A stretch of DNA of 64,000 bases from Endomicrobiia bacterium (GCA_039630545.1 JBCNUU010000001.1:60052-124051), one strand, 5' to 3'; shown: positions 7,893 through 64,000, counted from the stretch's first letter. The notes: generated by a model from the letters alone, not told the origin. Program-made: numbers and translations.

Positions 7893-7895
7893 AAG

Positions 7896-11597: not shown

Positions 11598-11626
11598 TTG
11601 ACAAAATAAATTAAATTTTATATTTT
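11598..11626 (+). promoter_or_regulatory. putative sigma70-like promoter (TTGACA -17- TATTTT) upstream of gldA-like operon
   Basis: TTGACA at 11598-11603, 17-nt spacer, TATTTT at 11621-11626; AT-rich background makes chance matches likely. Confidence 0.25.
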
Positions 11627-11681
11627 TGAAATCTAATTTAAAACTCTTTTCCTTATTGTCTTTTTTAATTATTTTAACACC

Positions 11682-41758: not shown

Positions 41759-41789
41759 ATTATTTTAAAAAACAAAACATATAAGGATC

Positions 41790-42516: not shown

Positions 42517-42537
42517 AAAATAAGAAAAATATAAAAA

Positions 42538-43725: not shown

Positions 43726-43730
43726 TTGTC

Positions 43731-44948: not shown

Positions 44949-44950
44949 TA

Positions 44951-48029: not shown

Positions 48030-48030
48030 T

Positions 48031-49410
48031 ATGAACTCTATAATTTTAGCTGGAGGAGCAGGTACTCGTCTGTGGCCATTATCAAGAAAATTTTCACCTA
48101 AATTTTTGTTAAAAATTGGTTCTTCCAGGTATTCTTTGTTTCAACAAACATTTCTTAGGGTAAAAAAATTTACTGCTTTAGAGAAAATTTTTGTTGTGGT
48201 AAATAGAGAATATAAGTTCTTAATAAAAGAGAATCTTCAAGATTTAAATATAGATTTCCCACTGGAAAATATAATTGCCGAACCCGAGGTAAGAAATACT
48301 CTTGTTGCTGTTGGTTTAGGTTGTTGGTTTATAAAAAATAAATTTTGTGATGAAGAAATAGTAGGAGTTTTCCCTTCAGACCATATTATTAAACCATCAG
48401 GTGAACTTGTCTCATATGTTAAAAAAGCAGAAAAACTGGCAGAAGATGAAAACATAGTGTTATTCGGAATAAAACCCAATAGAGTTGAGCCAGATTATGG
48501 TCATATAAAGGTAAAAAATAAAAGTAAAAATAATGTTTGCTATAATGTTGAAGAATTTATAGAAAAGCCTGAGTATAACTTGGCTAAAAAACTGATGAAA
48601 AATCAAAATATATACTGGAATAGTGGAATTTTTGTTTTTAAAATAAAAACCTTTTTTGAAGAATTAAAAAAATTTCAAAATGATTTATATAAAAATTTTG
48701 AAAAATTTAACTATGATGAAGTTGATAAATTGTATGAAAAGCTAAAACCTATATCAATTGATAAAGGATTGATTGAAAAAACAAATAAGTTAAAACTCAT
48801 CCCTATTCAAAAAGTTTTCTGGGATGATGTTGGCAGCTGGATATCTTTTGAAAGAATTTACAAAAAGGATAAAAATAATAATGTTATTCTTTCAAAAAAT
48901 TTTGATTTAGAGAGTACAAATTCAATAATAGTAGGAGACCAGAGTCGAATAATAGTTACAGCTGGATTAAAAGACACAATTGTAGTTGATACAGAAGATG
49001 CTTTATTAGTTTTAAATAAAAGTTATATCTCCAAAATCAAACAGATAATTGAAAAAATAAAAGATGAAACAACAAAATACCACAAAACCACAAAAAGACC
49101 GTGGGGATTTTATACAGTTTTAACAAAAAAAGACAACTACAAGGTAAAACTCATAAATGTACAACCTAACAAAAAAATAAGCTTACAAAAACACTTAAAG
49201 CGCAGTGAGATGTGGTTTGTAGTATCAGGTGTGGCTAAAATTACCTGTAATGGAAAAACAAAGTATGTCAAAAATGGAGAAACTTTTAAAGTAAATAAGG
49301 GTGTTCCTCACAGAATAGAAAATCCTTCCTCTACAGATATTCTTGAGATAATAGAAGTAAGCAGAGGTAAGTATCTGGATGAAGATGATATAGTAAGGTT
49401 AGAAAAATAG
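48031..49410 (+). CDS. manC: mannose-1-phosphate guanylyltransferase / mannose-6-phosphate isomerase (bifunctional type)
   Basis: N-terminal NTP-transferase (ILAGGAGTRLWPLS), C-terminal cupin (HRIENPSSTDILEIIEV), 459 aa. Confidence 0.8.
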   Translation: MNSIILAGGAGTRLWPLSRKFSPKFLLKIGSSRYSLFQQTFLRVKKFTALEKIFVVVNREYKFLIKENLQDLNIDFPLENIIAEPEVRNTLVAVGLGCWFIKNKFCDEEIVGVFPSDHIIKPSGELVSYVKKAEKLAEDENIVLFGIKPNRVEPDYGHIKVKNKSKNNVCYNVEEFIEKPEYNLAKKLMKNQNIYWNSGIFVFKIKTFFEELKKFQNDLYKNFEKFNYDEVDKLYEKLKPISIDKGLIEKTNKLKLIPIQKVFWDDVGSWISFERIYKKDKNNNVILSKNFDLESTNSIIVGDQSRIIVTAGLKDTIVVDTEDALLVLNKSYISKIKQIIEKIKDETTKYHKTTKRPWGFYTVLTKKDNYKVKLINVQPNKKISLQKHLKRSEMWFVVSGVAKITCNGKTKYVKNGETFKVNKGVPHRIENPSSTDILEIIEVSRGKYLDEDDIVRLEK

Positions 49411-51157: not shown

Positions 51158-51871
51158 ATGGGAAAAACAAAATTTTTAATATTTTTTCTGCCACTGTTTA
51201 TTAGTATTATATATGGTGGAATTATATGTGACAGATGTGGGATTGAAAATCCTGATGAGAATATGTTCTGTCAAGATTGTGGTGCGAGGTTAGTCAAATC
51301 TAAATCAACAATCTTTCATGATGAAAAGCCAGCTTCTCAAAATCAAGAAAAAATTTGTCTCTCCTGTAAAACAAAAAATTTAATTTCTGCTAAATTCTGT
51401 CAAAATTGTGGTGTAAAATTATCAGAAATTTCATATAAAAAAGAGCAGTCTTTAAAGTTCACAAATATAGATGCTTCAAAAAAAACAGGGGCTATTGTTT
51501 TTTCTATGCTGTTCCCAGGAGCAGGACACATCTATTTAGGTCATAAGCAAGAAAAAATAAAAGGGATAATTCTTGCCTCTGCATCTGGGGGTTTGATTTT
51601 AAGTAGCATCTTAATGTGGAGTTATGCCGAAGCAAGATATAAAGAATATGAAGACACCAAAGATGAGTTTGCCTATGAAGATTATTCATCAAGTATAGAT
51701 ATTGTAAACTTTTTGCTTGTGACACTTGCTGGTGTATGGGTTTATAATGTAGTAGACATCTTCATTACTACTTCAAAAGTTGGCAAATTTTCACATTTTG
51801 GTAAGGATTTTGAAATTTCAATAAATTTTTCGTCTAAGAAGTTTGAAGTATGTTTTGCTAAAAAATTTTAA
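51158..51871 (+). CDS. double zinc-ribbon membrane protein with TM2-like segment
   Basis: Two CxxC...CxxC pairs (CDRCG...CQDCG; CLSCK...CQNCG), then hydrophobic FPGAGHIYLG segment resembling TM2-domain motif. Confidence 0.4.
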   Translation: MGKTKFLIFFLPLFISIIYGGIICDRCGIENPDENMFCQDCGARLVKSKSTIFHDEKPASQNQEKICLSCKTKNLISAKFCQNCGVKLSEISYKKEQSLKFTNIDASKKTGAIVFSMLFPGAGHIYLGHKQEKIKGIILASASGGLILSSILMWSYAEARYKEYEDTKDEFAYEDYSSSIDIVNFLLVTLAGVWVYNVVDIFITTSKVGKFSHFGKDFEISINFSSKKFEVCFAKKF

Positions 51872-51898: not shown

Positions 51899-53137
51899 AT
51901 GAAGCATAAAATAATAAAAATAGCTACAGCAATACTGGTTGTTGTGTTGTTTTTTAGCTGTAGCCAAAGAAAAACTGCTCCATCGAGTGCACAAACCCAA
52001 ACATACTCATTAAATGTGATTATTAACCCTCCCGGTGCAGGAACAGTTACACTTAATCCTTCCGGACCCACATACAACGCAGGAACAGTTGTAACACTTA
52101 CAGCCACCCCACACAGTGGATATGTGTTTTCTAGTTGGGCTGGAGATTTAACCGGGACAACAAATCCTGCTACTATTACTATGAACTCAAACAAAACTGT
52201 AGTAGCTAACTTTACTCAAACCGGAAGTGGCGGTGGTGGCAGTGGTGGTGGCAGTGGTGGTGGCAGCGGTGGTGGCGGCGGTACTACTACTACTTATACT
52301 CTTAATGTATTAATTTCTCCACAAGGAGCGGGAGCAGTTACCTTAAATCCTGCAGGGGGGACGTATCCTGCTGGGACTCAAGTTACACTTACAGCAACTC
52401 CTTATTCAGGTTATATATTTTCATCTTGGTCAGGTGACCTAACAGGAACTTCAAATCCTGTAACAATTATTATGAACTCTAATAAATCTGTAACAGCTGT
52501 TTTCACTGCCTCTGGTGGTGGCAGTGGCGGTGGCGGTGGTGGTGGCGGCGGTGGTGGTGCTGATACTGCAAAATATAATTTTGAGACTACTGCTCAAGGT
52601 TGGCAGGCACAAACTTGGAGGGATTCTCAAGGAATTACTGCTGTAGCAAGAGATACATCAAAAGCAAAAAATGGAGTGGCAAGCTTAAGGTGTACGGTAA
52701 ATATACAGGGAGGAGATGAAACAGTTTTACCTAACACAAAAGGTGAAGCATGGGTAGATATGCAAAATAATCGCCCTTCTGGAGTTACTACTGTGCCTGT
52801 AAATTTATCTAATGCAACTGTTTCTGTATGGGTATTCTTACCAGATGAAGCAGCAGGAGATCCACAAAAACCAAATGGTATTCAGATTTTCTTTAAAGAT
52901 AGCAATTGGAAAAATAGATATAGTTCTTGGAAAAACATAGGTAATCCACCTTATGGACTTGAAACGAATACTTGGGTGCAGATTACGATTGATTGTGCTA
53001 CTGAACAGTGGGCATATGATGAAGCAGGATTTGATATGACTAAAGTTAGAGCAGTTGGTGTAAAAATTGGAACTGGTGGTGGCTCAACAGCTACATTTAA
53101 TGGCTACATCTGGATTGATTCTTTTGATTGGCAGTAA
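51899..53137 (+). CDS. surface lipoprotein: 2 divergent InlB-type B-repeats + Gly/Ser linkers + C-terminal ~190-aa beta-sandwich-like module
   Basis: Lipobox LFFSC; two ~75-aa repeats with TYTLNV...GYxFSSWSGDLTGT..NP.TI.MNSNK.V.A.FT pattern; poly-Gly/Ser linkers; C-terminal module shared with next gene. Confidence 0.6.
   Translation: MKHKIIKIATAILVVVLFFSCSQRKTAPSSAQTQTYSLNVIINPPGAGTVTLNPSGPTYNAGTVVTLTATPHSGYVFSSWAGDLTGTTNPATITMNSNKTVVANFTQTGSGGGGSGGGSGGGSGGGGGTTTTYTLNVLISPQGAGAVTLNPAGGTYPAGTQVTLTATPYSGYIFSSWSGDLTGTSNPVTIIMNSNKSVTAVFTASGGGSGGGGGGGGGGGADTAKYNFETTAQGWQAQTWRDSQGITAVARDTSKAKNGVASLRCTVNIQGGDETVLPNTKGEAWVDMQNNRPSGVTTVPVNLSNATVSVWVFLPDEAAGDPQKPNGIQIFFKDSNWKNRYSSWKNIGNPPYGLETNTWVQITIDCATEQWAYDEAGFDMTKVRAVGVKIGTGGGSTATFNGYIWIDSFDWQ
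52001..52510 (+). repeat. intragenic tandem B-repeat units (2 copies) in 51899 gene
   Basis: Direct protein/DNA repeat of ~225 nt unit. Confidence 0.6.
52223..52282 (+). repeat. GGT/GGC/AGT trinucleotide microsatellite (20 Gly/Ser codons) followed by (ACT)4
   Basis: ggaagtggcggtggtggcagtggtggtggcagtggtggtggcagcggtggtggcggcggt then actactactact. Confidence 0.9.
52514..52558 (+). repeat. GGT/GGC trinucleotide microsatellite (15 Gly/Ser codons)
   Basis: ggtggtggcagtggcggtggcggtggtggtggcggcggtggtggt. Confidence 0.9.
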
Positions 53138-53151
53138 TTTTTGTGTTGAAA

Positions 53152-53200
53152 AGAGGGGGTACTCTTTTAATGAAGCGAGAGTGCCCCCTCTCTTTAAATT
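53152..53200 (+). terminator. rho-independent terminator-like hairpin after 51899 gene
   Basis: 14-bp GC-rich stem AGAGGGGGTACTCT / AGAGTGCCCCCTCT (one G-U), 12-nt loop, followed by CTCTTTAAATT. Confidence 0.6.
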
Positions 53201-53221
53201 GTATAAATTTTAATTTCAGTT

Positions 53222-53288
53222 TCATCTTTTAAAAAGGAGAGCTATTTTAAATCTTATATTAGAAAGATAGCTCCTTTTTAATAGATGA
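53222..53288 (+). promoter_or_regulatory. long imperfect inverted repeat in leader of 53339 operon
   Basis: Arms TCATCTTTTAAAAAGGAG (53222-53239) and CTCCTTTTTAATAGATGA (53271-53288), 1 mismatch; 5' arm contains AAAAAGGAGA identical to the RBS of the downstream gene. Confidence 0.4.
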
Positions 53289-53338
53289 AATTGATATAAA
53301 TTTAAAATTTTAATGATCAAAAAAGGAGAAGCAAATTT

Positions 53339-55348
53339 ATGAAGAAATTGTTTATTTTCTTTCTAACTGTAAATTTTATATTATTTAATTTCTTAAGTTG
53401 TGCTAAAAAATCAAAATCACCAGTAACTACATCTACAACCACTTACACGTTAGTTGTGGTATGTAATCCTCAGACTGGCGGTGAGGTAGTATTAAATCCT
53501 CCAGGTGGAACATATAATGCTGGTACAGTTGTTACTATTGCTGCTTCTGCAAAAAGTGGCTATGTTTTTAGCGGATGGAGTGGTGATTTGACAGGTACAC
53601 AAAATCCTGTTACTGTTTTGATGGATAGAAACAAAACAATAGTAGCTAATTTTACACAACAAAGTACAACTGCTTATTATACACTTACAGTTAATATCTC
53701 TCCAGCTGCAGCAGGAGTAGTTGTACCTTCAAGTGGTACATATGCTGCTGGGACACAACTTACTTTAACAGCCACTGCTTCAAGCGGGTATGTGTTTAGT
53801 CACTGGAGTGGAGATTTAACAGGCACAACAAATCCTGCACAAATCACTATGGATTCAAACAAAGTAATTACAGCTAATTTTACACAGCAGCAAGTAAGCA
53901 CCTACACTCTTACTGTAAACATAAATCCTTTAGGTGGTGGTACTGTACTATTTAATCCTCCTGGTGGTACATATCCTGCTGGAACACAAGTGACACTTAC
54001 AGCTAAGGCAAATCCTGGTTATGTGTTTAATAACTGGAGTGGTGATGCAAGTGGGAATTCTGCCTCTGTGAGTATCGTGATGGATTCGAATAAAACTGTT
54101 ACGGCAAACTTTACTCAGACAGGTGGTGGAGGTGGAACGACTTATACTCTTCTTGTTAGTATAGAGCCCTCTGAAGCAGGAACGGTTTCTTTGAATCCAG
54201 CTGGTGGAGTGTATACGGCTGGAACTGTGGTGACACTTCAGGCACACCCTGAAAGTGGTTGGGTATTTGAAGGATGGAGTGGTAATCTTTCTGGCAACCA
54301 AAATCCAACTACTATTACAATGAATTCAAACAAAGTAGTTACAGCTAATTTTACCAAACAGCAGACCACCTATACGCTTACTGTTAACATAAATCCAGAT
54401 GGTGGTGGAAATGTTACGTTGAATCCTGCTGGTGGCACATATACTGCTGGAACGCAGGTGACCTTAACAGCTACTGCTTCAAGTGGGTATGTATTTAGCC
54501 ACTGGAGTGGAGATTTAACAGGAACAACAAACCATGCAACGATAACAATGAACTCAAACAAAGTAGTTACAGCTAATTTTACCCAACAGCAACAGCCCAC
54601 CTATACACTTACTGTTAACATAAATCCAGCTGGTGGTGGAAATGTTACACTGGATCCTGCTGGTGGTACATATACTGCTGGACAGGTAGTAATATTAACG
54701 GCTACTCCTTCAAGTGGATATCAGTTTTTAAACTGGACAATAGGACAAAATACAGTAACCTCAAACCCAACTACAGTTACAATGGATTCTAACAAAACAG
54801 TAACAGCTAATTTTGAACAAGTAGGTTCTGATACAGCAAGGTATAATTTTGAAACATCTGTTCAGGGTTGGGTCCATCAGACATATACTGATTCTCAAGC
54901 AATTACAGCGGTATCAAGAGATACATCAAAAGCAAGATATGGTCAGGCAAGTTTAAGATGTACAGTTAACCTTCAAGGAGGACATGCTAACTATTCTAAA
55001 GGTGAGACATTTGTAGACCTTCAAACGCCGACTGATTTAAGTAATAAAATAGTTACAGTATGGGTATGGGTCCCTTCTGAAACAGTTGCTACACCATCTA
55101 ACGGTATCCAGGTATTTTTTAAAGACTCAAATTGGAATAGTAAATATAGTAGCTGGCGCAATATAGGTGGTGATATTACTCCTGGAGTATGGAATCAGAT
55201 CTCAGTAAATACAGCTAATGAAGTATGGGGTTGGGATAATGGTTGTAATTTGTCCCAGGTAAGGTTGGTTGGAGTGAAGATAGGGACCGGAGATGGTTCA
55301 ACTTTTACATTTAATGGTTATATTTGGATTGATTCTGTAAACTGGTAA
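53339..55348 (+). CDS. surface lipoprotein: 6 tandem divergent InlB-type B-repeats + C-terminal beta-sandwich-like module (paralog of 51899 gene)
   Basis: Lipobox FLSC; six ~75-aa repeats each ending ...MNSNK.VTANFTQQ; C-terminal 190 aa ~50% identical to C-terminus of 51899 protein (YNFET..QGW, SLRCTVN.QGG, NGIQ.FFKDSNW, FNGYIWIDS). Confidence 0.65.
   Translation: MKKLFIFFLTVNFILFNFLSCAKKSKSPVTTSTTTYTLVVVCNPQTGGEVVLNPPGGTYNAGTVVTIAASAKSGYVFSGWSGDLTGTQNPVTVLMDRNKTIVANFTQQSTTAYYTLTVNISPAAAGVVVPSSGTYAAGTQLTLTATASSGYVFSHWSGDLTGTTNPAQITMDSNKVITANFTQQQVSTYTLTVNINPLGGGTVLFNPPGGTYPAGTQVTLTAKANPGYVFNNWSGDASGNSASVSIVMDSNKTVTANFTQTGGGGGTTYTLLVSIEPSEAGTVSLNPAGGVYTAGTVVTLQAHPESGWVFEGWSGNLSGNQNPTTITMNSNKVVTANFTKQQTTYTLTVNINPDGGGNVTLNPAGGTYTAGTQVTLTATASSGYVFSHWSGDLTGTTNHATITMNSNKVVTANFTQQQQPTYTLTVNINPAGGGNVTLDPAGGTYTAGQVVILTATPSSGYQFLNWTIGQNTVTSNPTTVTMDSNKTVTANFEQVGSDTARYNFETSVQGWVHQTYTDSQAITAVSRDTSKARYGQASLRCTVNLQGGHANYSKGETFVDLQTPTDLSNKIVTVWVWVPSETVATPSNGIQVFFKDSNWNSKYSSWRNIGGDITPGVWNQISVNTANEVWGWDNGCNLSQVRLVGVKIGTGDGSTFTFNGYIWIDSVNW
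53441..54826 (+). repeat. intragenic tandem array of six ~225-nt B-repeat units
   Basis: Units 2 and 5, and 3, 5 and 6, share long near-identical DNA stretches (e.g. ...ctgcttcaagygggtatgtrtttagycactggagtggagatttaacagg...). Confidence 0.8.
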
Positions 55349-55397
55349 TATCGTTTTTCTTAGAACAAATTAATTTAGAAAGGAGCCCACCTTATCA

Positions 55398-56303
55398 ATG
55401 AGAGGTTATTGCAGATTTAAGCCCTTGTTGCTTTATATTTTTTTATTGTCATTATCTTTTTATGTTTTTTGTAGCGGATTTAGTGGATTAAAACTGTTTT
55501 TTGGAGCAAGAACCACTGGGTTAGGTGAAAATTTATGTGGTTTATCAGAGGAAGTAGAAAATATTTACCACAATCCTGCCGGTCTTGTGGGAATAAATCC
55601 TTTTGAATTTAAAATTATGTATTCAAATTGGGTAGCAGATATAAATAGAAGTGATTTGATTTTAGCAAAATCTTTTAAAAATAAATCCGTGGTTGCTTTT
55701 TCTTTTAACTATATGTGGACAAGACTTGAAAGTGAATATAATAGTAGTGATTATTTTTCTTTAATACACACTATAGCATACGCAAGAAAATTAAATAAAA
55801 TTTATTTTGGATTAGGCACAACAATAGTATATGAATCTTTTTCTTTAGAAGAGGGTTATAATCTAGCTGGAGGTTTAGATTTAGGTGTACTTATCAGAAA
55901 ACAAAGAGCTGCTTTAGGCTTTAGTGTAAAACAAATAGGAAAAAGTTTTGTTTATATGGGAGAAGACTCAGAGATTTTGCCTTTTAATTTAAACTGTGGA
56001 GTAAGTTATATAATGCCTAACAATTTTGTTGTAGTTGGTAACATAAAATACAATTTGGATGGTTTAATTTCATTCCATACAGGATTAGAAGTTCCTCTAT
56101 ATAGAGGAATAAAAGAAGAAATAGCTATAAGAGCAGGCAATGTATTAAAATTACCATCCCTTAGTGATTTGCCTATAATTTCAAATTTTAGATTAGGTTT
56201 TGGATTTAGAAAAGAAGGTTTAAAGATAGATTATTGTTTGGTGCCTCTTGGAGAAAATATAGGTTTTTTTCATTATATATCTTTAGGATTTATTTTTTAT
56301 TAA
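55398..56303 (+). CDS. PorV/PorQ-family-like outer-membrane beta-barrel protein
   Basis: Signal peptide; N-terminal FFGARTTGLGENLCGLSEEVENIYHNPAGL matches PorV/PorQ hallmark (GAR..G.G.A......a.yWNPAGL); 301 aa; C-terminal aromatic residue. Confidence 0.45.
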   Translation: MRGYCRFKPLLLYIFLLSLSFYVFCSGFSGLKLFFGARTTGLGENLCGLSEEVENIYHNPAGLVGINPFEFKIMYSNWVADINRSDLILAKSFKNKSVVAFSFNYMWTRLESEYNSSDYFSLIHTIAYARKLNKIYFGLGTTIVYESFSLEEGYNLAGGLDLGVLIRKQRAALGFSVKQIGKSFVYMGEDSEILPFNLNCGVSYIMPNNFVVVGNIKYNLDGLISFHTGLEVPLYRGIKEEIAIRAGNVLKLPSLSDLPIISNFRLGFGFRKEGLKIDYCLVPLGENIGFFHYISLGFIFY

Positions 56304-56307
56304 AGTT

Positions 56308-58518
56308 ATGAAGAAAATATTTTTTATAACAACCTTAATAATACTTAATTCCAACATTTTTTTGTTTTCTCAACTTAAACCTAACCAGCTTAGAGTAAAT
56401 GGAAGAAATTTATTAGATGGAAATGGACAAGTGATTCGTTTGGTTGGAATAAATCATGGGCATGCATGGTATAGAGGATATTTAGGTTCTGCTCTTCAGG
56501 GTATAAAAAGTTGGGGTGCAAATTCTGTAAGAGTAGTTCTTTCTTGCGGTTATAGATGGACAAAAATTCCAGCTCATGAAGTTTCTGCAATAATAAGTGA
56601 AGCAAGAAATTTAGGTTTTAAAGCAATAGTTTTAGAAGTACATGATACAACAGGTTATGGAGAAGACAGTGCTGCATGTGATCTACAAACAGCAGTCAAC
56701 TACTGGATTGAGATAAAGAATGTTTTAATTGGACACGAGGATTTTGTAATAATAAATATAGGCAATGAACCATGGGGTAACCTCAACACCAGCGGCTGGG
56801 TGAATGCTACCAAAAATGCAATATCTGCTTTAAGAAATGCCGGGTTTACTCATGTTATAATGGTAGACGCACCTTGTTGGGGTCAGGATTGGAATAACAC
56901 TATGAGATATAATGCCACAAATGTGTTGAGTGCTGATACTTTGAATAATACAATTCTTTCGGTTCATATGTATGGTGTCTACAATACAGCTTCAAAAGTT
57001 CAGTATTATTTAAGTTATTACTATAATAATAATTTACCACTATGCATAGGCGAATTTGGACATTATCACTCTGATGGAGATCCTGATGAACAAGCAATAG
57101 TTAATTATGCAAGACAGTACGGAATGAGTATATTTGGATGGTCCTGGTGTGGAAACAGCGGAGGAGTCGAGTATTTAGATATGGTATATAATTGGAATCC
57201 GAATAGTCCTACTAATTGGGGAAGCTGGTATAAAAATAATGCATTAAGTGATCTTCCTCAAACTTATACTATTTCTATCAACATAAATCCTCAGAACTCA
57301 GGAAGTGTCACTTTATCTCCACCAGGTGGAACATATACAGCAGGCACTCAAGTTACACTTACAGCGCAGGCTAACAGTGGATATGTATTTAGCAGCTGGT
57401 CAGGAGATATAACTGGCAGTCAAAACCCGGCCACTGTTGTTATGAACTCAAATAAAAATATAACTGCTAATTTTATTCAATCAACTGTTAACACTTACAG
57501 GTTATCTTTAAGTATTTCTCCTTCCGGTTCAGGTGTGGTTTATCTAAACCCTTCAGGTGGGTTATATATAGCAGGAACTCAGGTGACTCTTACAGCACAA
57601 CCTAACAGTGGTTATGTATTTAACAGCTGGAGTGGGGATCTCTCTGGTAGTCAGAATCCCGCAAGTATTGTTATGGACTCCAACAAAAGTATTACAGCAA
57701 ACTTTGTACAATCAGGTTCAACCAGTATTACTTATACTTTAAATATAACTATTTCACCACAACAAGCCGGAAAAGTAAGTGTGAATCCGGTTGGAGGTGT
57801 GTATCAAGAAAATACACAGGTTGAAATTACTGCCTTTTCAAACAATGGATATGTGTTTTCTGGATGGAGTGGTGATATAACAACTAATGAAAATCCTTTA
57901 AAAATCACTATGAATTCTAACAAAAACATAACAGCTAATTTTTCCTCTATAAGTAGCACAACTTACACAGTTACAGTTATAATTTCACCTCAAAATGCTG
58001 GATTTGTGTACTTGAATCCAATAGGGGGTGTATATACAGCCGGGACTTTACTTACACTTGTTGCCTATCCTCAAGATGAGTATGAATTTTTAAACTGGTC
58101 AGGAGATATTTTCTCAGAGGCCCAAACTGTAAGTATTGTGGTTGATTCTAATAAAGTAATACAAGCAAATTTTATTTTAAAATCTTCAACAGCTCCTTTT
58201 TCAGATCAAAAAGAATTTTTAGATTCTATAATTATTCTTCCTCCTTCTGAAAACCCTTTTTATTTAAACAAAACCAACAGCTATGTTAAACTAAAATATT
58301 ATCTTAAACAGTCAATGTCTGTAAGGCTGAAAGTATATGATGTGTCTCTAAATTTAGTAAGGATCACAGAATACCAACACAATCAAGCTGGAGAAAATTA
58401 TTTCATATTTGATGCTAAAGATGACGAAGGATATCTTTTGCCAGCAGGACTTTATTTGTATCAAATTGAATCTCATAGTTCAAAAAGTAGTTTTGGTAAA
58501 ATTTTTATAGTAAGGTGA
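56308..58518 (+). CDS. secreted GH5 glycoside hydrolase (mannanase-like) + 4 B-repeats + T9SS-type C-terminal sorting domain
   Basis: SPI signal; GH5 catalytic motifs NEP (IINIGNEPWG) and GEFG (LCIGEFGHYH); four ~75-aa B-repeats (57262-58190); C-terminal ~95 aa matches Por-secretion CTD pattern (ENPF...YDvsLNLV...G.N...fDAKDDEG..LPAGLYLYQIE...KIFIVR). Confidence 0.7.
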   Translation: MKKIFFITTLIILNSNIFLFSQLKPNQLRVNGRNLLDGNGQVIRLVGINHGHAWYRGYLGSALQGIKSWGANSVRVVLSCGYRWTKIPAHEVSAIISEARNLGFKAIVLEVHDTTGYGEDSAACDLQTAVNYWIEIKNVLIGHEDFVIINIGNEPWGNLNTSGWVNATKNAISALRNAGFTHVIMVDAPCWGQDWNNTMRYNATNVLSADTLNNTILSVHMYGVYNTASKVQYYLSYYYNNNLPLCIGEFGHYHSDGDPDEQAIVNYARQYGMSIFGWSWCGNSGGVEYLDMVYNWNPNSPTNWGSWYKNNALSDLPQTYTISININPQNSGSVTLSPPGGTYTAGTQVTLTAQANSGYVFSSWSGDITGSQNPATVVMNSNKNITANFIQSTVNTYRLSLSISPSGSGVVYLNPSGGLYIAGTQVTLTAQPNSGYVFNSWSGDLSGSQNPASIVMDSNKSITANFVQSGSTSITYTLNITISPQQAGKVSVNPVGGVYQENTQVEITAFSNNGYVFSGWSGDITTNENPLKITMNSNKNITANFSSISSTTYTVTVIISPQNAGFVYLNPIGGVYTAGTLLTLVAYPQDEYEFLNWSGDIFSEAQTVSIVVDSNKVIQANFILKSSTAPFSDQKEFLDSIIILPPSENPFYLNKTNSYVKLKYYLKQSMSVRLKVYDVSLNLVRITEYQHNQAGENYFIFDAKDDEGYLLPAGLYLYQIESHSSKSSFGKIFIVR
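57262..58190 (+). repeat. intragenic tandem array of four B-repeat units
   Basis: Four direct ~230-nt repeats encoding TYT..I.P...G.V.LNP.GG.YTAGT.VTLTA.PNSGYVF.SWSGD..G..NP....M.SNK.ITANF. Confidence 0.8.
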
Positions 58519-60209
58519 AAATTCTTTTTGTTATATTTTTATCTTTTCTTGTTTATTTAAACACATTAAAAAATGATTTTGTTTGGGATGATACATCAAT
58601 TATTGTAAATAACAAATGGATTAGAACTCCCTCAAATTTTTTTAAATTTTTTATATTGAAAGAAACTATTTCCGAAGATACAAGAACAAAGCCATACATA
58701 TATAGACCACTTGTAACCTTTAGTTATTCTTTAGATTATTCAGTCTGGAGACTTTCTTCGTTTGGTTATCATTTAAGCAATATAATTTTTCATACAGTTA
58801 CGGTTATATTTTTATACATACTTACAGATTTGATTTTAAATAACAAAAAAATTTCTTTATTTAGTAGTGTAATTTTTGCAGTGCATCCTGTGCATACAGA
58901 GGCAGTAAGCTGGATAAAAGGCAGAGCTGATATTTTGGCTTGTATGTTTTGTATGTTATCTTTTATATTCTACATATTGTATTTCATTAGAAATGAAAGA
59001 TTTATTTATTACTTTTTGTCCTTATTGTTCTTTATTTTTGGATTATTTTCAAAAGAATCAGCAGTTGCTTTAGTTGGTATTATAATTGCATATGATATAA
59101 TTTTTAAAAAGAAATTTCTCTTTAAGAGTTATATTTTGTTTATAATAGTTTTATTTCTTTACATTATTTTAAGAAAAAGTGTATTAGGAAGCAATCTACC
59201 TTATAGATGGTGGGCAGGAAGTCAGTATTATACTTTTTTAACTGCTATGAAAGTTCTAGTTGAGTATTTCAGGTTGTTGGTTTTTCCTATAAATTTATGT
59301 GCTGATTATGTCGTTGAGATTTCGTTTAATGTATTTGACTTAAAAGTAATTTTTTCAATTCTATTTTTAATTTTTTTAATTACTATTTCATTTATTTCTA
59401 TTAAAAGATTTTCAATTTTTTCTTTTTGCATTTTTTTTATCTTGATTTCATTACTACCAGTTGCAAATATTATTTTCCCGATTGAAGTATTACTGGCAGA
59501 AAGATTTTTATATATGCCTTCTGTTGGCATGTGTTTATTTTTTGGCTGGTTAGTGTATAGAATTTTAACAAGAAACAAAACATTGGGATATATAGTTTTT
59601 GTTTTAATTGTGCTTCCTTATTCAATTTTAACCTGTAATCGCAACAAAGACTGGAAAGATGAATTTAACCTGTGGTCTAAGACAGCAAAACAATTTCCTG
59701 ATAACTTTAGAGCACACAACAACTTAGGTATGGAGTATGAAAAATCAGGAAATTTAGAAAAAGCTCTTTACCACTACAAAATAGCATCAAACCTCACACC
59801 TAATCTGTCATGGTTACACAATGATAAGAACCAGACATATGCAAGAGTATATAATAATATTGGAAATGTTTATTTCAAACAAAAAAATTTTAACACAGCA
59901 ATTGAATATTATAAAAAAGCTATTGATTTAGATCCTTTATATTCTTCACCTTACTTTAACTTAGGCTTATTATATAGAAATAAAGGTTTACTGGATTTAG
60001 CTATCTATTACTACAAAAAAGCAATAGAACTTAATCCGTATGTTGCAGACTACTATAACAATCTTGGAGTGGTGTATGCATTAAAGGATGATTTTAAAGA
60101 AGCTATTATTCAATATGAAAAAGCAGTGGAGTTGTCTTCAGATGAAGATTTTAAAAAACAAGTGCTTAAAAATATAGAGATAGCAAAAAATTTTTTGAGG
60201 AGAAAATGA
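58515..60209 (+). CDS. TMTC-like GT-C glycosyltransferase (PMT_2/DUF1736-like membrane domain) with C-terminal TPR repeats
   Basis: GTG start overlapping upstream stop (GGTGA); ~10 TM; DD motif in first loop (FVWDDTSIIVNN); 5 C-terminal TPR units (AHNNLGMEYEKSGNLEKALYHYKIA..., YNNIGNVYFKQKNFNTAIEYYKKAIDLDP...). Confidence 0.6.
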   Translation: MKILFVIFLSFLVYLNTLKNDFVWDDTSIIVNNKWIRTPSNFFKFFILKETISEDTRTKPYIYRPLVTFSYSLDYSVWRLSSFGYHLSNIIFHTVTVIFLYILTDLILNNKKISLFSSVIFAVHPVHTEAVSWIKGRADILACMFCMLSFIFYILYFIRNERFIYYFLSLLFFIFGLFSKESAVALVGIIIAYDIIFKKKFLFKSYILFIIVLFLYIILRKSVLGSNLPYRWWAGSQYYTFLTAMKVLVEYFRLLVFPINLCADYVVEISFNVFDLKVIFSILFLIFLITISFISIKRFSIFSFCIFFILISLLPVANIIFPIEVLLAERFLYMPSVGMCLFFGWLVYRILTRNKTLGYIVFVLIVLPYSILTCNRNKDWKDEFNLWSKTAKQFPDNFRAHNNLGMEYEKSGNLEKALYHYKIASNLTPNLSWLHNDKNQTYARVYNNIGNVYFKQKNFNTAIEYYKKAIDLDPLYSSPYFNLGLLYRNKGLLDLAIYYYKKAIELNPYVADYYNNLGVVYALKDDFKEAIIQYEKAVELSSDEDFKKQVLKNIEIAKNFLRRK

Positions 60210-62179
60210 GAGGTTTTTTAATAAGTTTTATTTTTTATACAAATGTATGTTTTTGTTTACCTACTATTAATACAGTGCTGCCTGAAAAAAACAGAGTAGG
60301 TAAATATGAAAAATTTGAATTAGTGGTTGAAATTTCGGCAACATACACAAATCCATATGATCCTCACCAAGTAGACCTATCGTGTGTGTTTTTTTCTCCA
60401 AGTAATAAAGAATGGAGAATATTTGGTTTTTATGACGGGACAAAGTGGAAAATAAGATTTACTCCAAATGAAACTGGAGTTTGGAGCTACAGAGTTTTTT
60501 TAAAAGATCAAACAGGACAAACTGAATCTAATCTTTTAAGCTTTGAATGCATGGAGTCTGATTCCCATGGTTGGATTAAAGTAGCACCTAACAAAAGATA
60601 TCTAATGTATGACGATAATACTCCGTTTTATGGAGTTGGATTTTGTAGAGCGTGGAATTCTCTAAGTGTCCCGTTTGAAACATTAAAAGAGTTTGGAGTT
60701 AACATGATATTAATCTGGGTTGGTCCTCCATGGGTTGGGATGATTGAAAATACTTCAAAAGGTATTGGTATTTATGATCAACAGATATGTTATACAATAG
60801 AAAACTATATTCAGCAAGCAGAAAAAAATAATATCCATATAATACTCTGTTTGTGGCCTCACGATGCTTTAAGAATTCCAGGACAGCCATGGCCATCAGG
60901 AAACTGGGCGAAAAATGCCTACAGTCTTATTACAACTCCAGAAGGTTTTTATTCAGATACATCTACAGTATGGGATTATCAACAAAAACTTTATAGATAC
61001 ATTATTGCCAGATGGGGATATAGCACATCTTTAGCTATATGGAATATAATAGTGGAGATCAATGGAACCACAGGCTACTCTATAAATCCTTCTGCTGCTG
61101 AAGAATGGTGTAAAAGAGTGCATAATTTTTTCAAACAAAACGATCCTTACAAAAAACCTACATGTGGTTCTAAATCAGGCGATCAGTTTTGGAATAACGG
61201 ATACAATATTTTTGATATTGCAGAGATTCATACATATAAGGATAAAAATAATGCTTCAGAAGTAGCAGATACTATTATAACCTATACAAGACAAATGTGG
61301 GCAGGTTTTTTAAAACCAAACTTCGTTGGAGAATTTGGGACAGATGATCAAAATTTACAGCCATTTCATTTACACAATGCTATCTGGGCAGGTTTGTCTG
61401 CAGGAGCAGCTATAACTCCGTTAGATTGGAATGACGGTGGTAGTTGGGGAGATATTACTGATGATATGCTTCAACATATGAAAATTTTTTCAAACTTTAT
61501 AAAAGAAATTGATTTTGTGAATGATGATTTTATACCTGCTAATGTTTCTGTTGTTCCTTCTGGTGAGGTTTTTGGAATGAAAGGGAATAAGTGTTGTTTT
61601 GGCTGGATAAGGAAAACAGATGACACTATTGAGAGAGTATTAACCATTTCAGGAATGACAGATGGCGTATATGAAATGAAGTTTTATGATACATATACAG
61701 GAGATTTTTTTTATATTACTTTAGCAACTTCAACTTATGGATTTTTATCAACAAAAATCCCAGCTATTTCTAAAACTGATTTTGCTTTTAAAGGGTATCT
61801 TAAATTTTCTAATAATCAATCTTCGGGTAACAAAGAATTCACCGTGGAAGGAGAATTACTTAAAATTTTACCATTAGAGAAAAATCCTGTAAAATTTTAT
61901 AAAGATAAAGAAGTAAAAATAAGATTTCTTGTTAATATTCAGATTCCTTCTAAAGTGAAAGTTACTATTTATGATATAAACATGAATTTAGTCAAAATTC
62001 TTACAAGTTCTTCGGATGGTTGGTTAAAAGTTTTTTCTCCATATCAGGAATTTACATGGGATTTAAAAGACGAAAATGGTAGAGAAGTTGACGGTGGTCT
62101 TTATATTTACAAAATAGAAGCAATAAATGATTATAAAGTTAAAAGTAGTAAATTAAATAAAATTATGGTAATAAAATAA
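60206..62179 (+). CDS. secreted DUF5060 + DUF4038 (GH5-like) glycoside-hydrolase-like protein with T9SS-type C-terminal sorting domain
   Basis: ATGA overlap with upstream gene; signal peptide; N-terminal DUF5060-like segment (VGKYEKFELVVEISATYTNPYDPHQVDLSCVF), TIM-barrel-like central region ending FVGEFGTDDQ; C-terminal ~100 aa matches same CTD pattern as 56308 protein (VKVTIYDINMNLVKIL...EVDGGLYIYKIEA...KIMVIK). Confidence 0.6.
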   Translation: MRGFLISFIFYTNVCFCLPTINTVLPEKNRVGKYEKFELVVEISATYTNPYDPHQVDLSCVFFSPSNKEWRIFGFYDGTKWKIRFTPNETGVWSYRVFLKDQTGQTESNLLSFECMESDSHGWIKVAPNKRYLMYDDNTPFYGVGFCRAWNSLSVPFETLKEFGVNMILIWVGPPWVGMIENTSKGIGIYDQQICYTIENYIQQAEKNNIHIILCLWPHDALRIPGQPWPSGNWAKNAYSLITTPEGFYSDTSTVWDYQQKLYRYIIARWGYSTSLAIWNIIVEINGTTGYSINPSAAEEWCKRVHNFFKQNDPYKKPTCGSKSGDQFWNNGYNIFDIAEIHTYKDKNNASEVADTIITYTRQMWAGFLKPNFVGEFGTDDQNLQPFHLHNAIWAGLSAGAAITPLDWNDGGSWGDITDDMLQHMKIFSNFIKEIDFVNDDFIPANVSVVPSGEVFGMKGNKCCFGWIRKTDDTIERVLTISGMTDGVYEMKFYDTYTGDFFYITLATSTYGFLSTKIPAISKTDFAFKGYLKFSNNQSSGNKEFTVEGELLKILPLEKNPVKFYKDKEVKIRFLVNIQIPSKVKVTIYDINMNLVKILTSSSDGWLKVFSPYQEFTWDLKDENGREVDGGLYIYKIEAINDYKVKSSKLNKIMVIK

Positions 62180-62197
62180 GCTAAAAAGGAGGATGTT

Positions 62198-64000
62198 ATG
62201 AAAAGTAAAATATTAGTTTTTATAAATACAGTTTTATTTGCTTTTTTTTGTTCTGGTTATTCTAAAGATTGGTATGTGCTGGAAGATTTTGAAGGTGTAA
62301 ACTACTGGTCAATAGTAAGCTGGAAAACAGCTACTAAAGCTGTAAGTATTTCAAAAGAAATTTTCTCTGAAGGAGAAAAGGCACTTAAAGTTGATTTTGA
62401 AAATTCCGATTGGTCTGAAAAAGCACAGGTTATGATAGAGCAGTTTTTTGATTTCTCAGGAGTAGAAAAAATTTCCATGGATATTTATAATCCAAATAAA
62501 GAAACACTTCTTACTACAATGGCTTTATGTACCGGTGATAAATGGGAGTGGTATGAATCACCTGAACAAAGGTTAGTTTCTGGATGGAATAAAGAAGTCA
62601 CTTTTAATTTGCGTTCTCCTAACTGGAAAGCAGAAAGAAGCGGATGGAGAAACATAATTAAAGTTGAGAACCTCAAAGATGTAAGAAGAATTACTTTAAC
62701 TTTTGTTGGTGGAAGAGGTCCTGTATATATAGATAATATTAAAGTTTATGGGGAAAAGAAAATTGATAAAATTTCACCCACAATAAAACAGATAGGTGAT
62801 AAGATATTGTTTGAATCGTTTGAAGAAGATAAGACACAATGGAGTATAGCAGGATGGCGCACTCAAGCAGTGGAAGTAAAATTTAACGAAAAATGGGCTA
62901 CCGATGGTAAAAAAAGTTTAGAACTTATTTTTGAAGATGTTACTGACTCTAACAAAGCATCCTACTGTATAGAGGGAGACTTCAATTGGGAGAAAGTCAA
63001 CAGATTTTATATAGATGTGTTTAATCCTCTTAAAAAAAACATAAAAATAAACTTAGCTCTTTCCACAGGTGGTGGTTGGATATGGTATGAATCTCCTGAC
63101 AAAGTGTTAACTCCAGGAGAAAATAAAGATATAGAATTTGACCTCAATGCGAAAAATTTTAAATGTGAAGCAACAAATTGGACTTACTCAAGTTATGTAA
63201 AACATAAGGAGAAAGTAAAAAGAATAGCAATACAGGTTATCGCGCCTCAGGGAGAGACACTTAGTGGCTCAGTAAGTATTGACAACTTAAGAATCACAGA
63301 AGGAGAACCTTTAGTGATACCTGTAGAAATAAAACCACCTAAATATCCTGAGGTAGTAAATCCTTCCAGATACAGTATACCCAAAATCAAATCGATTACT
63401 TCAAATTTAGAAATGGTGGGTCAATATGAAAAGTTTGAACTTACATTAGAAATTGATTCTTATTTTGAAAATCCATATAATCCTAATGAAGTGCTATTAA
63501 CTGGGATTTTTATTTCTCCGGATGGAAAAACATATAGAGTTCCTGGATTTTATTACGAAGATTTTAGAGAAGAAACTGGTCTTTTAAAACCAACTGGTAA
63601 GAAGTACTGGAAGATTCGTTTTTCACCGAATAAAATTGGTAGCTGGGACTATTATGTGGAATTTAAAAATCCAGCAGGAAAAATTGAAAGTAAAAGACAA
63701 AGTTTTGAGTGCGTAAGTTCAAGAAATAAAGGAATAATCGTAGTTTCTGAAAGTAAAAATTACTTTAAATTTATCACTGGAGGAACATATTTCCCTTTAG
63801 GACAGAATGTTTGCTGGGTGACAGCTTCTGATAATTGGAAATACTCTGATTATTTGAGAAAACTTTCGGAAACAGGCCAGAACTGGACTAGACTATGGAA
63901 CTGTCCGTGGGGTTTTATAATAGAATGGGGAGAACCAAGAGGACAGGGGCTTGGAAGATATAATCAAAAAGATAGTTTTGAGTTTGACAGAATAATAGAA
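62198..64000 (+). CDS. lipoprotein with two N-terminal copies of the shared beta-sandwich-like module followed by DUF5060/DUF4038-like domain; 3'-truncated by window edge
   Basis: AGGAGG RBS, ATG 62198, lipobox FFCSG, open frame to 64000; modules at ~62267-62753 and ~62798-63308 share W..S.WRNI and G..YIDN motifs with C-termini of 51899/53339 proteins; DUF5060-like MVGQYEKFELTLEIDSYFENPYNPNEV from ~63380. Confidence 0.55.
   Translation, partial: MKSKILVFINTVLFAFFCSGYSKDWYVLEDFEGVNYWSIVSWKTATKAVSISKEIFSEGEKALKVDFENSDWSEKAQVMIEQFFDFSGVEKISMDIYNPNKETLLTTMALCTGDKWEWYESPEQRLVSGWNKEVTFNLRSPNWKAERSGWRNIIKVENLKDVRRITLTFVGGRGPVYIDNIKVYGEKKIDKISPTIKQIGDKILFESFEEDKTQWSIAGWRTQAVEVKFNEKWATDGKKSLELIFEDVTDSNKASYCIEGDFNWEKVNRFYIDVFNPLKKNIKINLALSTGGGWIWYESPDKVLTPGENKDIEFDLNAKNFKCEATNWTYSSYVKHKEKVKRIAIQVIAPQGETLSGSVSIDNLRITEGEPLVIPVEIKPPKYPEVVNPSRYSIPKIKSITSNLEMVGQYEKFELTLEIDSYFENPYNPNEVLLTGIFISPDGKTYRVPGFYYEDFREETGLLKPTGKKYWKIRFSPNKIGSWDYYVEFKNPAGKIESKRQSFECVSSRNKGIIVVSESKNYFKFITGGTYFPLGQNVCWVTASDNWKYSDYLRKLSETGQNWTRLWNCPWGFIIEWGEPRGQGLGRYNQKDSFEFDRIIE

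Follow-up and report, generated by a model that had tools for sequence, protein, structure and literature searches.

The locus described here belongs to an uncultured, hot-spring Endomicrobiia MAG (phylum Elusimicrobiota) and occupies the last part of the 64-kb stretch of DNA that we analyzed in full (the window). Seven co-directional open reading frames (ORFs), A to G, lie within positions 51899 to 64000, and the features needed below are as follows.

A, 51899..53137, + strand: lipoprotein of 412 aa with two B-repeats, linkers rich in Gly, and, at the C terminus, a Mann_GBD/CBM27-like module
B, 53339..55348, + strand: lipoprotein of 669 aa with six B-repeats and a C-terminal Mann_GBD-like module
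C, 55398..56303, + strand: outer membrane (OM) beta-barrel of 301 aa and 14 strands, PorV/PorQ (FadL-like) family; the hatch at its N terminus carries the motif NPAGL
D, 56308..58518, + strand: secreted protein of 736 aa with a GH5 domain (aa ~29-311), four B-repeats (aa 320-624), and a C-terminal domain (CTD; aa ~640-736)
E, 58515..60209, + strand: GT-C-fold, PMT_2/TMTC-like protein of 564 aa with a multi-TM domain of ~380 aa and C-terminal TPRs, overlapping D (GTGA) and F (ATGA)
F, 60206..62179, + strand: secreted protein of 657 aa in which an Ig-like DUF5060 domain (aa 31-97) is followed by a TIM barrel resembling clan GH-A that extends to aa ~475, and by a CTD (aa ~560-657)
G, 62198..64000, + strand: truncated where the window stops (full length 1083 aa in the related contig L015), with a signal peptide, two modules resembling Mann_GBD/CBM27, DUF5060, and a hydrolase TIM barrel
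Neighbor of the locus: Zn-ribbon gene (DZR/Zn_Ribbon_1, E 6.5e-10; DUF5683, E 0.008; Pfam), likewise placed in L001, L004, and L005

The ORF coordinates reproduce the 4-nt gap between C and D and the GTGA and ATGA overlaps on either side of E that a first-pass annotation had noted, and the genes also stay together in relatives, with the same order in six or more genomes or contigs (L001/L008, L004, L005/L007, L010, L011, and L015). Across these loci barrel C is 56 to 64% identical and E is 49 to 63% identical. Contig L015, which is 99.87% identical to the window over 6055 bp, continues past the window end with the rest of G, a 536-aa protein, an SBP_bac_1 protein, two BPD_transp_1 proteins, and a GH130 enzyme. 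By homology, the binding protein and the two permeases form an ABC sugar importer, while the protein of 536 or 541 aa, with its signal peptide, terminal YFY, and weak matches to Alginate_exp, is a putative large OM barrel. An endo-beta-mannanase, mannan-binding modules, an oligosaccharide importer, and GH130, the components by which a generic beta-mannan utilization locus is recognized, are thus all present by homology; given the GH5 mannanase, the Mann_GBD/CBM27 modules, and the downstream importer with GH130, the whole cluster is therefore a beta-mannan utilization locus. The window region is its upstream two-thirds, and the remainder reaches ~12 kb beyond the window end. The earlier proposal of a co-transcribed-looking, self-contained surface glycan-degrading apparatus is supported, with mannan as the glycan by homology. 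Two related mannanase loci, L012 and the distant L013, carry GH113, DUF5060, and Mann_GBD together with related barrels, and in both a DUF5683 protein adjoins these barrels.

The two lipoproteins combine InlB-type B-repeats with C-terminal binding modules. Pfam finds PF18998 (E 2.1e-34) and PF21253 (E 4.1e-5) in A, where jackhmmer places the repeats at aa 36-107 and 133-204, and PF18998 in six stretches of B (E 3.1e-105), a protein in which Ser and Thr make up 25% of residues. The count of 12 B-repeats given at first pass proved exact, split 2+6+4 across A, B, and D (Pfam PF18998; jackhmmer). Four ~190-aa modules had also been recorded there as unassigned; all four are present, but they can be assigned, matching Mann_GBD_bact PF21253/CBM27 (E 4e-12 in G, 4e-5 in A, and 1e-3 in B) and forming two pairs (A and B, 55% identity; the two modules of G, 33%). 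Among three proposed lipoproteins, only A (five orthologues) and B keep the lipobox Cys across orthologues, whereas the Cys of G is missing from 4 of 4 orthologues examined. We regard A as a candidate surface mannan-binding protein.

The GH5 assignment of D is confirmed by Pfam (PF00150, E 2.3e-34), and its eight strong PDB matches (E 6e-89 to 3e-61), led by the beta-mannanase 1bqc (E 6e-89), comprise seven beta-mannanases or mannanase homologues and 4y7e, which was deposited as “Endoglucanase.” The NEP and GEFG catalytic motifs are seen in its sequence, and homology shows D to be a predicted endo-beta-1,4-mannanase. The second hydrolase-like protein, F, had been given a DUF4038 domain, which we do not recover (no DUF4038 match, and hence no GH140/DUF4038 assignment, at E<=0.01 in Pfam); what it does contain is DUF5060 (PF16586, E 1.4e-15), and its closest solved relative is PDB 9gmj (E 2.2e-32), named “DUF5060 domain-containing protein.” The alignment of the two includes the VGEFG motif, and the acid/base motif NE of 9gmj is replaced by VE in F. 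DUF5060 recurs in G (E 5.4e-15) alongside PF21253 in two stretches (E 4e-12) and CBM27 (E 6.6e-4; all Pfam), and the complete G in L015 adds a weak match to PF26410 (GH5_mannosidase). G shares 28% identity with F across 478 aa, and its tail bears no CTD. Homology thus shows F and G to be probable TIM-barrel hydrolases with DUF5060 domains.

The PorV/PorQ-like OM barrel proposed at first pass stands. C has the 14 strands and N-terminal hatch with an NPA motif that characterize the PorV/PorQ (FadL-like) superfamily, its best fold match is PorV, and by sequence PorQ scores above PorV. It narrowly misses the PorV/PorQ family cut-off (83.2 versus 90), which its nearest relatives pass, and among NCBIfam models C and its L011 orthologue match the PorV/PorQ family only. 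D and F have mutually homologous CTDs (phmmer E ~1e-7), which match FlgD_ig in Pfam at 32.2 and 20.0 bits, respectively (cut-off 27). The T9SS-type tags previously read in these CTDs find no counterpart when D and F are scanned as whole proteins (no TIGR04183 or PF18962 match at E<=0.01), but they are recovered from the isolated domains, where 12 of 12 orthologous CTDs match TIGR04183, albeit weakly (best E 6.1e-6; 17.5 bits for the window D against a cut-off of 23), 12 of 12 match the PorU tail (best E 3.5e-11), and 8 of 12 match PorZ. In the PDB, the CTD profile matches the C-terminal domain of PorU best (E 5.5e-6), and the tail of the PorU model NF033707 matches the F CTD (E 8.9e-7). These domains therefore appear to resemble T9SS type A tags, the PorU tail best, with scores mostly under curated cut-offs. 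In L013, an orthologue of F (49% identical) with the same CTD lies directly upstream of the PorV/Q-like barrel, an adjacency that supports a link between barrel and CTD.

E has the membrane fold and the acidic motif in the first extracytoplasmic loop that mark GT-C enzymes, with F-x-x-DD in this N-terminal loop followed by HPxHTE, AERxLYxPS, and then strong TPRs (E 3e-34). Its description as a TMTC-like GT-C enzyme is upheld in fold, PMT_2/TMTC-like sequence, and TPRs but not by the PF08409 (TMTC_DUF1736) search, in which E reaches only 16.4 bits against a cut-off of 27; PF08409 is present in several homologues at 30 to 33% identity. E lies between D and F in all orthologous loci and is absent from L012 and L013, which also have no B-repeats, a correlation between GT-C and B-repeats that spans two locus types only.

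We consider the following working model reasonably probable as a whole, with roles assigned from homology or gene context. The B-repeat stalks of lipoproteins A and B would hold mannan-binding modules away from the cell, while D, and probably F, would be exported and retained at the surface, their CTDs docking onto the PorQ/PorV-like barrel C much as PorU and PorZ do on PorV and PorQ in Porphyromonas. Oligosaccharides would pass the outer membrane, possibly by way of the 536-aa barrel, and be taken in by the ABC system, after which GH130 would cleave them, by phosphorolysis if it acts like characterized members. E, translationally coupled between D and F, would use a polyprenyl-phosphate sugar to glycosylate Ser/Thr-rich B-repeat stalks or linkers of the exported proteins of the locus, which may confer stability at high temperature, as GT39 does on Caldicellulosiruptor cellulases.

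Within this model, a role for barrel C as the docking partner of the CTDs is a tentative assignment, and two other readings of the same genes bear on it. In Porphyromonas, PorV and PorQ serve as the anchors of PorU and PorZ (PMC5562754), and type B CTD cargo genes are known beside their own PorP/SprF-like barrel gene (Gorasia 2022, PMC9143113). The locus could accordingly belong to a genuine T9SS encoded in full elsewhere in the genome, with D and F as type A cargo exported via SprA and C as a dedicated PorV/PorQ paralogue acting as shuttle or anchor. The homology of the CTDs to type A tags, the PF18962 carried by their database relatives, the PorV-like fold of C with the family-level scores of its closest relatives, and the CHU_C/type-B-like tags in the related locus L012 all point this way. 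Against it, C scores far below the equivalog models for PorV (23.6; cut-off 250) and PorQ (48.6; cut-off 220) and so is not identified as either protein (NF033710/NF033711); the ORFs of >=120 aa in the window include no gene of the SprA, PorU, or PorK/L/M/N type, nor do precomputed Pfam tables covering ~10 kb on each side of eight related loci list one. To our knowledge, T9SS is restricted to Bacteroidota/FCB. It is described as a Bacteroidota system (PMC12365241), and we found no paper linking it to Elusimicrobiota, the phylum of this host. We consider a complete T9SS behind this locus unlikely, and we think it marginally less plausible still that C is a FadL/CymA-like channel for manno-oligosaccharides or a hydrophobic compound, with the Ig-like CTDs serving only a structural or carbohydrate- or cell-binding function and export proceeding via a secretin pathway. 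The FadL-type NPAGL hatch is invariant, kindred barrels recur in the mannanase loci L012 and L013, the window contains a PilMNO-PilQ secretin cluster, and the CTDs match FlgD Ig domains as well; yet the FadL family is known for hydrophobic substrates, the locus has a better channel candidate in its putative barrel of 536/541 aa, which is weakly similar to Alginate_exp, and both the restriction of C to PorV/PorQ-family matches among NCBIfam models and the recurrence of a barrel beside a same-CTD protein in L013 speak against the channel reading.

For E, glycosylation of the locus's own proteins is the reading that we prefer, though we put it forward as little short of an even prospect. C-terminal TPRs are typical of protein-recognizing TMTC enzymes (TMTC1-4), and we know of no bacterial member of this family with a demonstrated acceptor. 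That E instead assembles or modifies a glycan of the cell envelope (LPS, O-antigen, or some other glycolipid), such as the acceptor that surface enzymes become attached to, or that its position in the operon is incidental, has a modest chance of being correct: an O-antigen-type cluster (ABC-2 transporter, two GT4 genes, Wzy_C, and ManC) lies directly upstream at 40 to 49 kb, and the E family is very large and spread over many genomic contexts. This is countered by the overlap of E with both flanking enzyme genes and its constant position, by a PMT_2/TMTC-like sequence family of protein O-mannosyltransferases, by the TPR tail, and by a precedent in Caldicellulosiruptor bescii. In the glucan degradation locus of that organism, a GT39 (Cbes_1864) glycosylates the hydrolases and shields them against proteolysis, and the organism requires it to grow on crystalline cellulose (PMC6151902). 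The locus as a whole had also been called a compositionally distinct island. The composition is indeed raised, with GC of 0.34 to 0.42 in A, B, and D versus ~0.28 for the window, but not in a manner that signals foreign origin: GC2 (0.41 to 0.55 versus a background of 0.28) and likewise GC1 carry the excess because of Gly/Thr/Ser/Ala-rich repeats, while GC3 (0.16 to 0.23) is within the background of 0.182 ± 0.023. The same CstA and Zn-ribbon neighbors are common to five copies of the locus, the window included, and precede it in relatives only 56 to 64% identical, and no tRNA, mobility genes, or repeats border it, with no integrase or transposase nearby. Because GC3 does not depart from the genome background and relatives retain the gene order, this is not a foreign island, and horizontal acquisition is effectively refuted, leaving it at most a very slight probability. 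Judged from sequence, the locus is very probably a native, conserved cluster with which thermophilic Endomicrobiia would bind, cut, and import mannan, a plant polysaccharide.

Like the SusC/SusD polysaccharide utilization loci (PULs) of Bacteroidota, mannan PULs among them, the locus gathers binding lipoproteins, an endo-glycanase, glycosidases, an OM barrel, and an importer into one co-directional cluster per polysaccharide, and its GH130 enzyme recalls known mannan pathways. It differs in belonging to Elusimicrobiota and in having no SusC/SusD (no TonB-dependent receptor, Plug, or SusD match in any locus gene); uptake is through an ABC system with a solute-binding protein, and the barrels are a 14-strand PorV/Q-like protein and an unclassified one of ~540 aa. 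A hot-spring Elusimicrobia SAG enriched ~500x on cellulose particles carried CBMs and no cellulases (PMC7031533). With the T9SS attachment complex of Porphyromonas gingivalis (PorU-PorV and PorZ-PorQ), the locus shares a PorV/PorQ-family barrel and proteins whose Ig-like CTDs most resemble the CTDs that PorU and PorZ retain; it departs from that system in its below-threshold barrel scores and mostly below-threshold CTD scores, in the absence of SprA, PorU, and PorKLMN from the window and related-locus flanks, in an organism outside the phyla with reported T9SS, and in cargo that consists of glycoside hydrolases in a catabolic operon.

The mix of type-IX-like sorting tags, a PorV/PorQ-like OM barrel, and a built-in TMTC-like glycosyltransferase is unusual, in a phylum for which we found no report of type IX secretion. 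One element of what had been taken for an undescribed operon type is nonetheless already known, since the C. bescii GT39 shows that a GT-C enzyme embedded in a glycoside hydrolase locus is not unprecedented. Both organisms are thermophiles with a GT-C-fold, PMT-type gene amid genes for multidomain secreted glycoside hydrolases, but C. bescii is a monoderm Firmicute whose GT39 lacks TMTC-type motifs and a TPR tail and targets Pro/Thr linkers, whereas the Endomicrobiia enzyme is TMTC-like with TPRs in a diderm host, its candidate targets being B-repeats and Gly/Ser/Thr linkers. E shares with eukaryotic TMTC1-4 the GT-C membrane domain, the motif series, and the TPRs that follow, and differs in its sub-threshold TMTC_DUF1736 match and in a donor that would be a polyprenyl-P-sugar rather than Dol-P-Man. 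Eukaryotic TMTCs O-mannosylate folded beta-sandwich (cadherin) repeats, and tandem B-repeats could be an analogous substrate of E.

Over its full length, the D catalytic domain can be aligned with bacterial beta-mannanases of Thermobifida fusca (Man5), Bacillus, and Streptomyces (1bqc, 4fk9, 3wsu, 3jug, 2whj, and 1wky; E 6e-89 to 3e-63), which we take to be members of GH5 subfamily 8 and which share its NEP and GEFG motifs; where these enzymes usually carry CBM2, CBM3, or CBM59, D has four B-repeats and a T9SS-like CTD.

The seven genes of this locus (A to G), all oriented in the same direction, are best filed as a mannan-specific variant of the polysaccharide utilization locus in hot-spring Endomicrobiia. 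Relative to polysaccharide utilization loci, it lacks SusC/SusD and adds T9SS-like parts, namely, C-terminal domains (CTDs) and a barrel, together with an embedded TMTC-like GT-C glycosyltransferase. The genes are as follows:

51158-51871, Z, conserved upstream gene
51899-53137, A, lipoprotein
53339-55348, B, lipoprotein
55398-56303, C, barrel
56308-58518, D, GH5 mannanase
58515-60209, E, GT-C glycosyltransferase
60206-62179, F, DUF5060 hydrolase
62198 to past 64000 (window end), G, DUF5060 hydrolase

The first-pass annotation identified most of the parts correctly but misjudged the composition. The close gene spacing it described is present, with a 4-nt gap between C and D, a GTGA overlap between D and E, and an ATGA overlap between E and F. 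Ordinary signal peptides were found on C, D, and F. Three lipoproteins had been proposed; the lipobox cysteine is kept in orthologs of A and B, but G is probably not a lipoprotein, since its cysteine is missing in all four of the orthologs inspected. The locus had also been called a compositionally distinct island, a label that we consider wrong: GC content is indeed raised in A (0.42), B (0.39), and D (0.35) compared to ∼0.28, but GC3 (0.16 to 0.23) is at the level of 47 upstream genes (0.182 ± 0.023), and the excess is confined to GC2 (0.41 to 0.55 versus 0.28) and GC1, where it is explained by repeats rich in Gly, Thr, Ser, and Ala (B is 16% Thr, 11% Gly, and 9% Ser). The remainder of the window is ordinary chromosome, encoding PilMNO-PilQ, leucine biosynthesis, Mfd, ParAB, QueA/Tgt, and an O-antigen-type cluster. 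Scans for tRNA genes and Rfam families found none in the window, and promoter prediction, with 51 sites versus 57 expected, was of no help in DNA this rich in AT.

The enzymes of the locus point to beta-mannan. HMM searches recovered the expected GH5 domain in D, whose catalytic domain can be aligned over its full length with bacterial beta-mannanases of known structure (Thermobifida fusca 1bqc, E value of 6e-89; other matches were to Streptomyces and Bacillus enzymes) and contains the NEP and GEFG motifs. The DUF4038 domain suggested earlier had no match; F and G have DUF5060. F matches only the family of 9gmj, a recent deposit with no functional label (E value of 2e-32), with the GEFG nucleophile motif aligned and VE in F where 9gmj has NE, and a literature search on DUF5060 and 9GMJ found nothing concerning the F/G family. 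Four ∼190-aa modules that had been left unassigned can be assigned to Mann_GBD_bact (PF21253), and those of G also to CBM27; they form two pairs, with 55% identity between A and B and 33% between the two in G. PDB sequence searches with these CBM-like modules gave nothing useful. The 12 InlB-type B-repeats were found as described, two in A, six in B, and four in D by HMM, and jackhmmer independently recovered exactly 12 of ∼72 aa each. N-glycosylation sequons (NFT and NKT/S) in these repeats were considered and dropped, as they are retained in only 6 to 7 of the 12 by eye.

A Logan contig (L015) that is 99.87% identical to window positions 57946 to 64000 shows the sequence beyond the window end. 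It encodes a full-length G of 1,083 aa with a weak GH5_mannosidase match, followed by a 536-aa signal-peptide protein ending in AVYFY, then an SBP_bac_1 protein with two ABC permeases and a GH130 enzyme. The protein following G (536 to 541 aa) is located at positions 7530 to 9140 of this contig (∼65.5 to 67.1 kb in window numbering), and at 9789 to 11414 and 7509 to 9134 in two orthologous loci (L010 and L011, respectively); its signal peptide and C-terminal YFY are conserved. Beyond weak Alginate_exp matches of the L010 and L011 orthologs (E values of 0.0015 to 0.0085), no Pfam or NCBIfam family and no relative in the PDB was found for this protein, and because of those matches we regard it as a putative outer-membrane channel, a candidate for a new type that would pass oligosaccharides. 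The combination of an endo-mannanase with mannan-binding modules, an importer, and GH130 defines a beta-mannan utilization locus, bearing out the earlier view of a self-contained surface glycan-degrading apparatus. In a hot spring, an Elusimicrobia population that encodes CBMs but no cellulases became ∼500-fold enriched on cellulose particles (PMC7031533); a mannan locus would fit this enrichment, although the parallel is suggestive only. With this locus, the use of plant polysaccharide (hemicellulose) by thermophilic Endomicrobiia acquires a concrete genetic basis; the physical enrichment of their relatives on cellulose particles had lacked explanation (PMC7031533). The thermostable GH5 mannanase, the 9gmj-like hydrolases, and the new CBM-like modules may also have practical use.

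The genes are co-located in relatives, as the first-pass annotation had proposed checking. The order CstA, Zn-ribbon protein, A to G, and ∼536-aa protein is common to three other genomes (GCA_964508565.1, GCA_017880035.1, and GCA_025060535.1, the last being SKYB53 from a hot spring filled with plant litter), and two further metagenome contigs, with E ∼50% identical, have the same core followed by an ABC sugar-binding protein. Identity of C is 59 to 64% in the three genomes and 56 to 64% over all seven close orthologs; a protein encoded on a 267-kb contig of an Endomicrobiia MAG matches it at 100%. A scan of species-representative genomes recovered only two of these genomes and one distant Coatesbacteria locus, and an exhaustive HMM search with the barrel yielded 6 cluster representatives at an E value of ≤1e-30 and 1,453 at ≤1e-10, which marks the orthologs as a small clade inside a large family. 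In GCA_964508565.1 (locus positions 10908 to 13220), the D ortholog is annotated as a 348-aa fragment without GH5, which looks like a gene-calling artifact and not a pseudogene, because the stop-to-stop frame is open over 771 aa.

The barrel C had been described as PorV/PorQ-like, and this description stands at the level of resemblance: it scores 83.2 bits against the NCBIfam PorV/PorQ family (E value of 2.5e-23), under the cutoff of 90, and its PorQ score (48.6) exceeds its PorV score (23.6), both far under the equivalog cutoffs. No Pfam match was found for C, and a PDB sequence search with it gave nothing useful. Its AlphaFold2 model (pLDDT of 79.5) has 14 strands and an N-terminal hatch that bears an invariant NPAGL motif. 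The nearest nonorthologous relatives of this barrel are all above the NCBI PorV/PorQ family cutoff (122 to 219 bits), and none reaches a PorV or PorQ equivalog score. In one such locus (L012), the barrel lies between GH113 mannanase-family genes, a DUF5683 protein, GH94, GH116, and DUF5060, and proteins tagged with CHU_C/FlgD_ig are encoded close by; in another (L013), it is directly downstream of a protein that is 49% identical to F and bears the same CTD, and it is followed by a DUF5683 protein, several Mann_GBD proteins, and one GH113. From these contexts we conclude that the barrel, a Z-like DUF5683 protein, Mann_GBD, a DUF5060 hydrolase, and a mannanase recur as a module beyond the clade. 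Both loci (JGI 3300033148 and GCA_043821115.1, respectively) have ∼44 to 45% GC and numerous Mann_GBD_bact proteins, the DUF5683 protein next to the barrel being a membrane protein, and the latter also encodes a second barrel with a PF19572 PorV match and a UPF0164-OmpA fusion. Related barrels also occur in other settings. In JGI 3300033141 (L014, 4418 to 9729), a 379-aa relative directly follows MotA/ExbB, MotB/OmpA, OmpA, and a 694-aa unknown protein, with a FliG_C protein upstream; this context is unrelated to the mannan loci and is a hint of coupling between a proton-motive motor and certain PorV/Q-like barrels. In a Candidatus Coatesbacteria locus of 71% GC (L009, 156 to 7626), a distant homolog carries a fused fn3 domain, and an 858-aa protein that ends in a FlgD_ig domain is encoded nearby.

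D and F have mutually homologous CTDs, which all orthologs retain; D also has a C-terminal FlgD_ig match at 32.2 bits, above the cutoff. No other protein of the window or the orthologous loci carries the CTD, and G lacks it. A profile of 12 CTDs searched against the PDB matched best to the C-terminal domain of PorU (6za2, residues 1082 to 1153; E value of 5.5e-6), followed by FlgD Ig domains, with the PorZ tail at an E value of 0.2. When the CTDs were scanned alone, the PorU tail and TIGR04183 were each matched by 12 of 12 and PorZ by 8, and a word-indexed search with the profile returned only three database proteins, which carry PF18962. These matches make homology to T9SS type A tags credible, as first proposed, but the CTDs mostly fall below curated thresholds for membership (17.5 bits for D against a TIGR04183 cutoff of 23). 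No T9SS core family was matched among window open reading frames of ≥120 aa, no core gene is annotated in the flanks of related loci, and our literature search found no paper attributing T9SS to Elusimicrobia, Elusimicrobiota, or Endomicrobia, only incidental co-mentions, and yielded no useful survey of how T9SS is distributed over phyla. We rate the T9SS label for the locus as unproven. The only outer-membrane export candidate seen in the window is a PilQ secretin or pilus cluster (1743 to 6374: PilM-PilN-PilO, a 162-aa ORF, and PilQ with AMIN, STN, and Secretin domains). Four genes at 11682 to 15815 (ABC ATPase, ABC-2 permease, ABC_transp_aux/DUF7088, and DUF4340) correspond in layout to the gliding-associated ABC transporter of Bacteroidota (GldA/GldF/GldG-like), a widespread type of cluster.

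In Porphyromonas gingivalis, PorU and PorZ retain their CTDs and are held by PorV and PorQ (PMC5562754), which offers the best mechanistic analogy for how C may dock the CTDs of D and F. If it works independently of SprA, a module of this kind would hold glycoside hydrolases on the outer membrane of bacteria that have no T9SS (Elusimicrobiota and the L012 and L013 lineages) and might represent a stand-alone or ancestral version of the T9SS attachment complex. The full proposal, that the barrel and CTDs form a SprA-independent docking module whose Endomicrobiia version is coupled to TMTC-like O-glycosylation of B-repeat stalks, is one that we consider improbable as a whole. T9SS-type sorting parts in a catabolic operon of a phylum with no known T9SS would mean either that T9SS extends beyond its documented range or that the CTD-barrel interaction functions alone.

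E consists of a multi-transmembrane domain followed by strong TPRs, and its AlphaFold2 model is confident (pLDDT of 91.5). The TMTC-like GT-C assignment holds in that PMT_2 scores above the cutoff, but TMTC_DUF1736 is only subthreshold. A PDB sequence search with the membrane domain gave nothing useful, and the full-length homolog profile was swamped by TPR matches, so a fold search was used instead. At least 2,202 homologs occur in Omnitrophota, Nitrospirae, Brocadia, and others, several with TMTC_DUF1736 or PMT and some named protein O-mannosyl-transferase, and the FVWDD, HPxHTEAV, SKE, and AERxLYxPSxG motifs, which match the TMTC signature, are nearly invariant. E lies between D and F in all orthologous loci; both E and B-repeats are absent from L012 and L013, a weak correlation across two locus types. 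In Caldicellulosiruptor bescii, a GT39 enzyme inside the glucan degradation locus is required to glycosylate secreted multidomain cellulases and shields them from cleavage; growth on crystalline cellulose depends on it (PMC6151902). Because of this precedent, the conserved position, and the family motifs, we favor the reading that E glycosylates the exported proteins of its own locus, the main alternative being that it serves envelope glycan synthesis. If E O-glycosylates the B-repeat stalks, substrates would be identified for a bacterial TMTC-type enzyme for the first time, as we know of no earlier case. E and its candidate substrates also offer a natural pairing for a very large, uncharacterized bacterial TMTC/PMT_2-TPR family.

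Other glycan-related genes are present in the window. An O-antigen/cell-surface glycopolymer cluster directly upstream of CstA (40248 to 49410) encodes an ABC-2 permease and ATPase, an AZOBR_p60025-family glycopolymer protein, two GT4 enzymes, a 653-aa Wzy_C/O-antigen-ligase-like protein, and a bifunctional ManC (GDP-mannose); a Wzy_C-GT4-ManC arrangement likewise precedes the orthologous locus L005. At 6426 to 9625, the genes encode, in order, a 488-aa multi-transmembrane protein with C-terminal TPRs, a 244-aa GT2, and a ROK kinase. The 488-aa protein (6426 to 7892) was rejected as a paralog of E, as only its TPR part aligns, and the GT2 might, speculatively, make the polyprenyl-phosphate sugars that GT-C enzymes use. 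Elsewhere in the window, and with no CRISPR context seen, a stand-alone 198-aa protein (30793 to 31389) has an HNH region resembling the HNH domains of IscB, Cas9, and Cas9d, at E values of 1e-13 to 1e-14 and far under the cutoffs.
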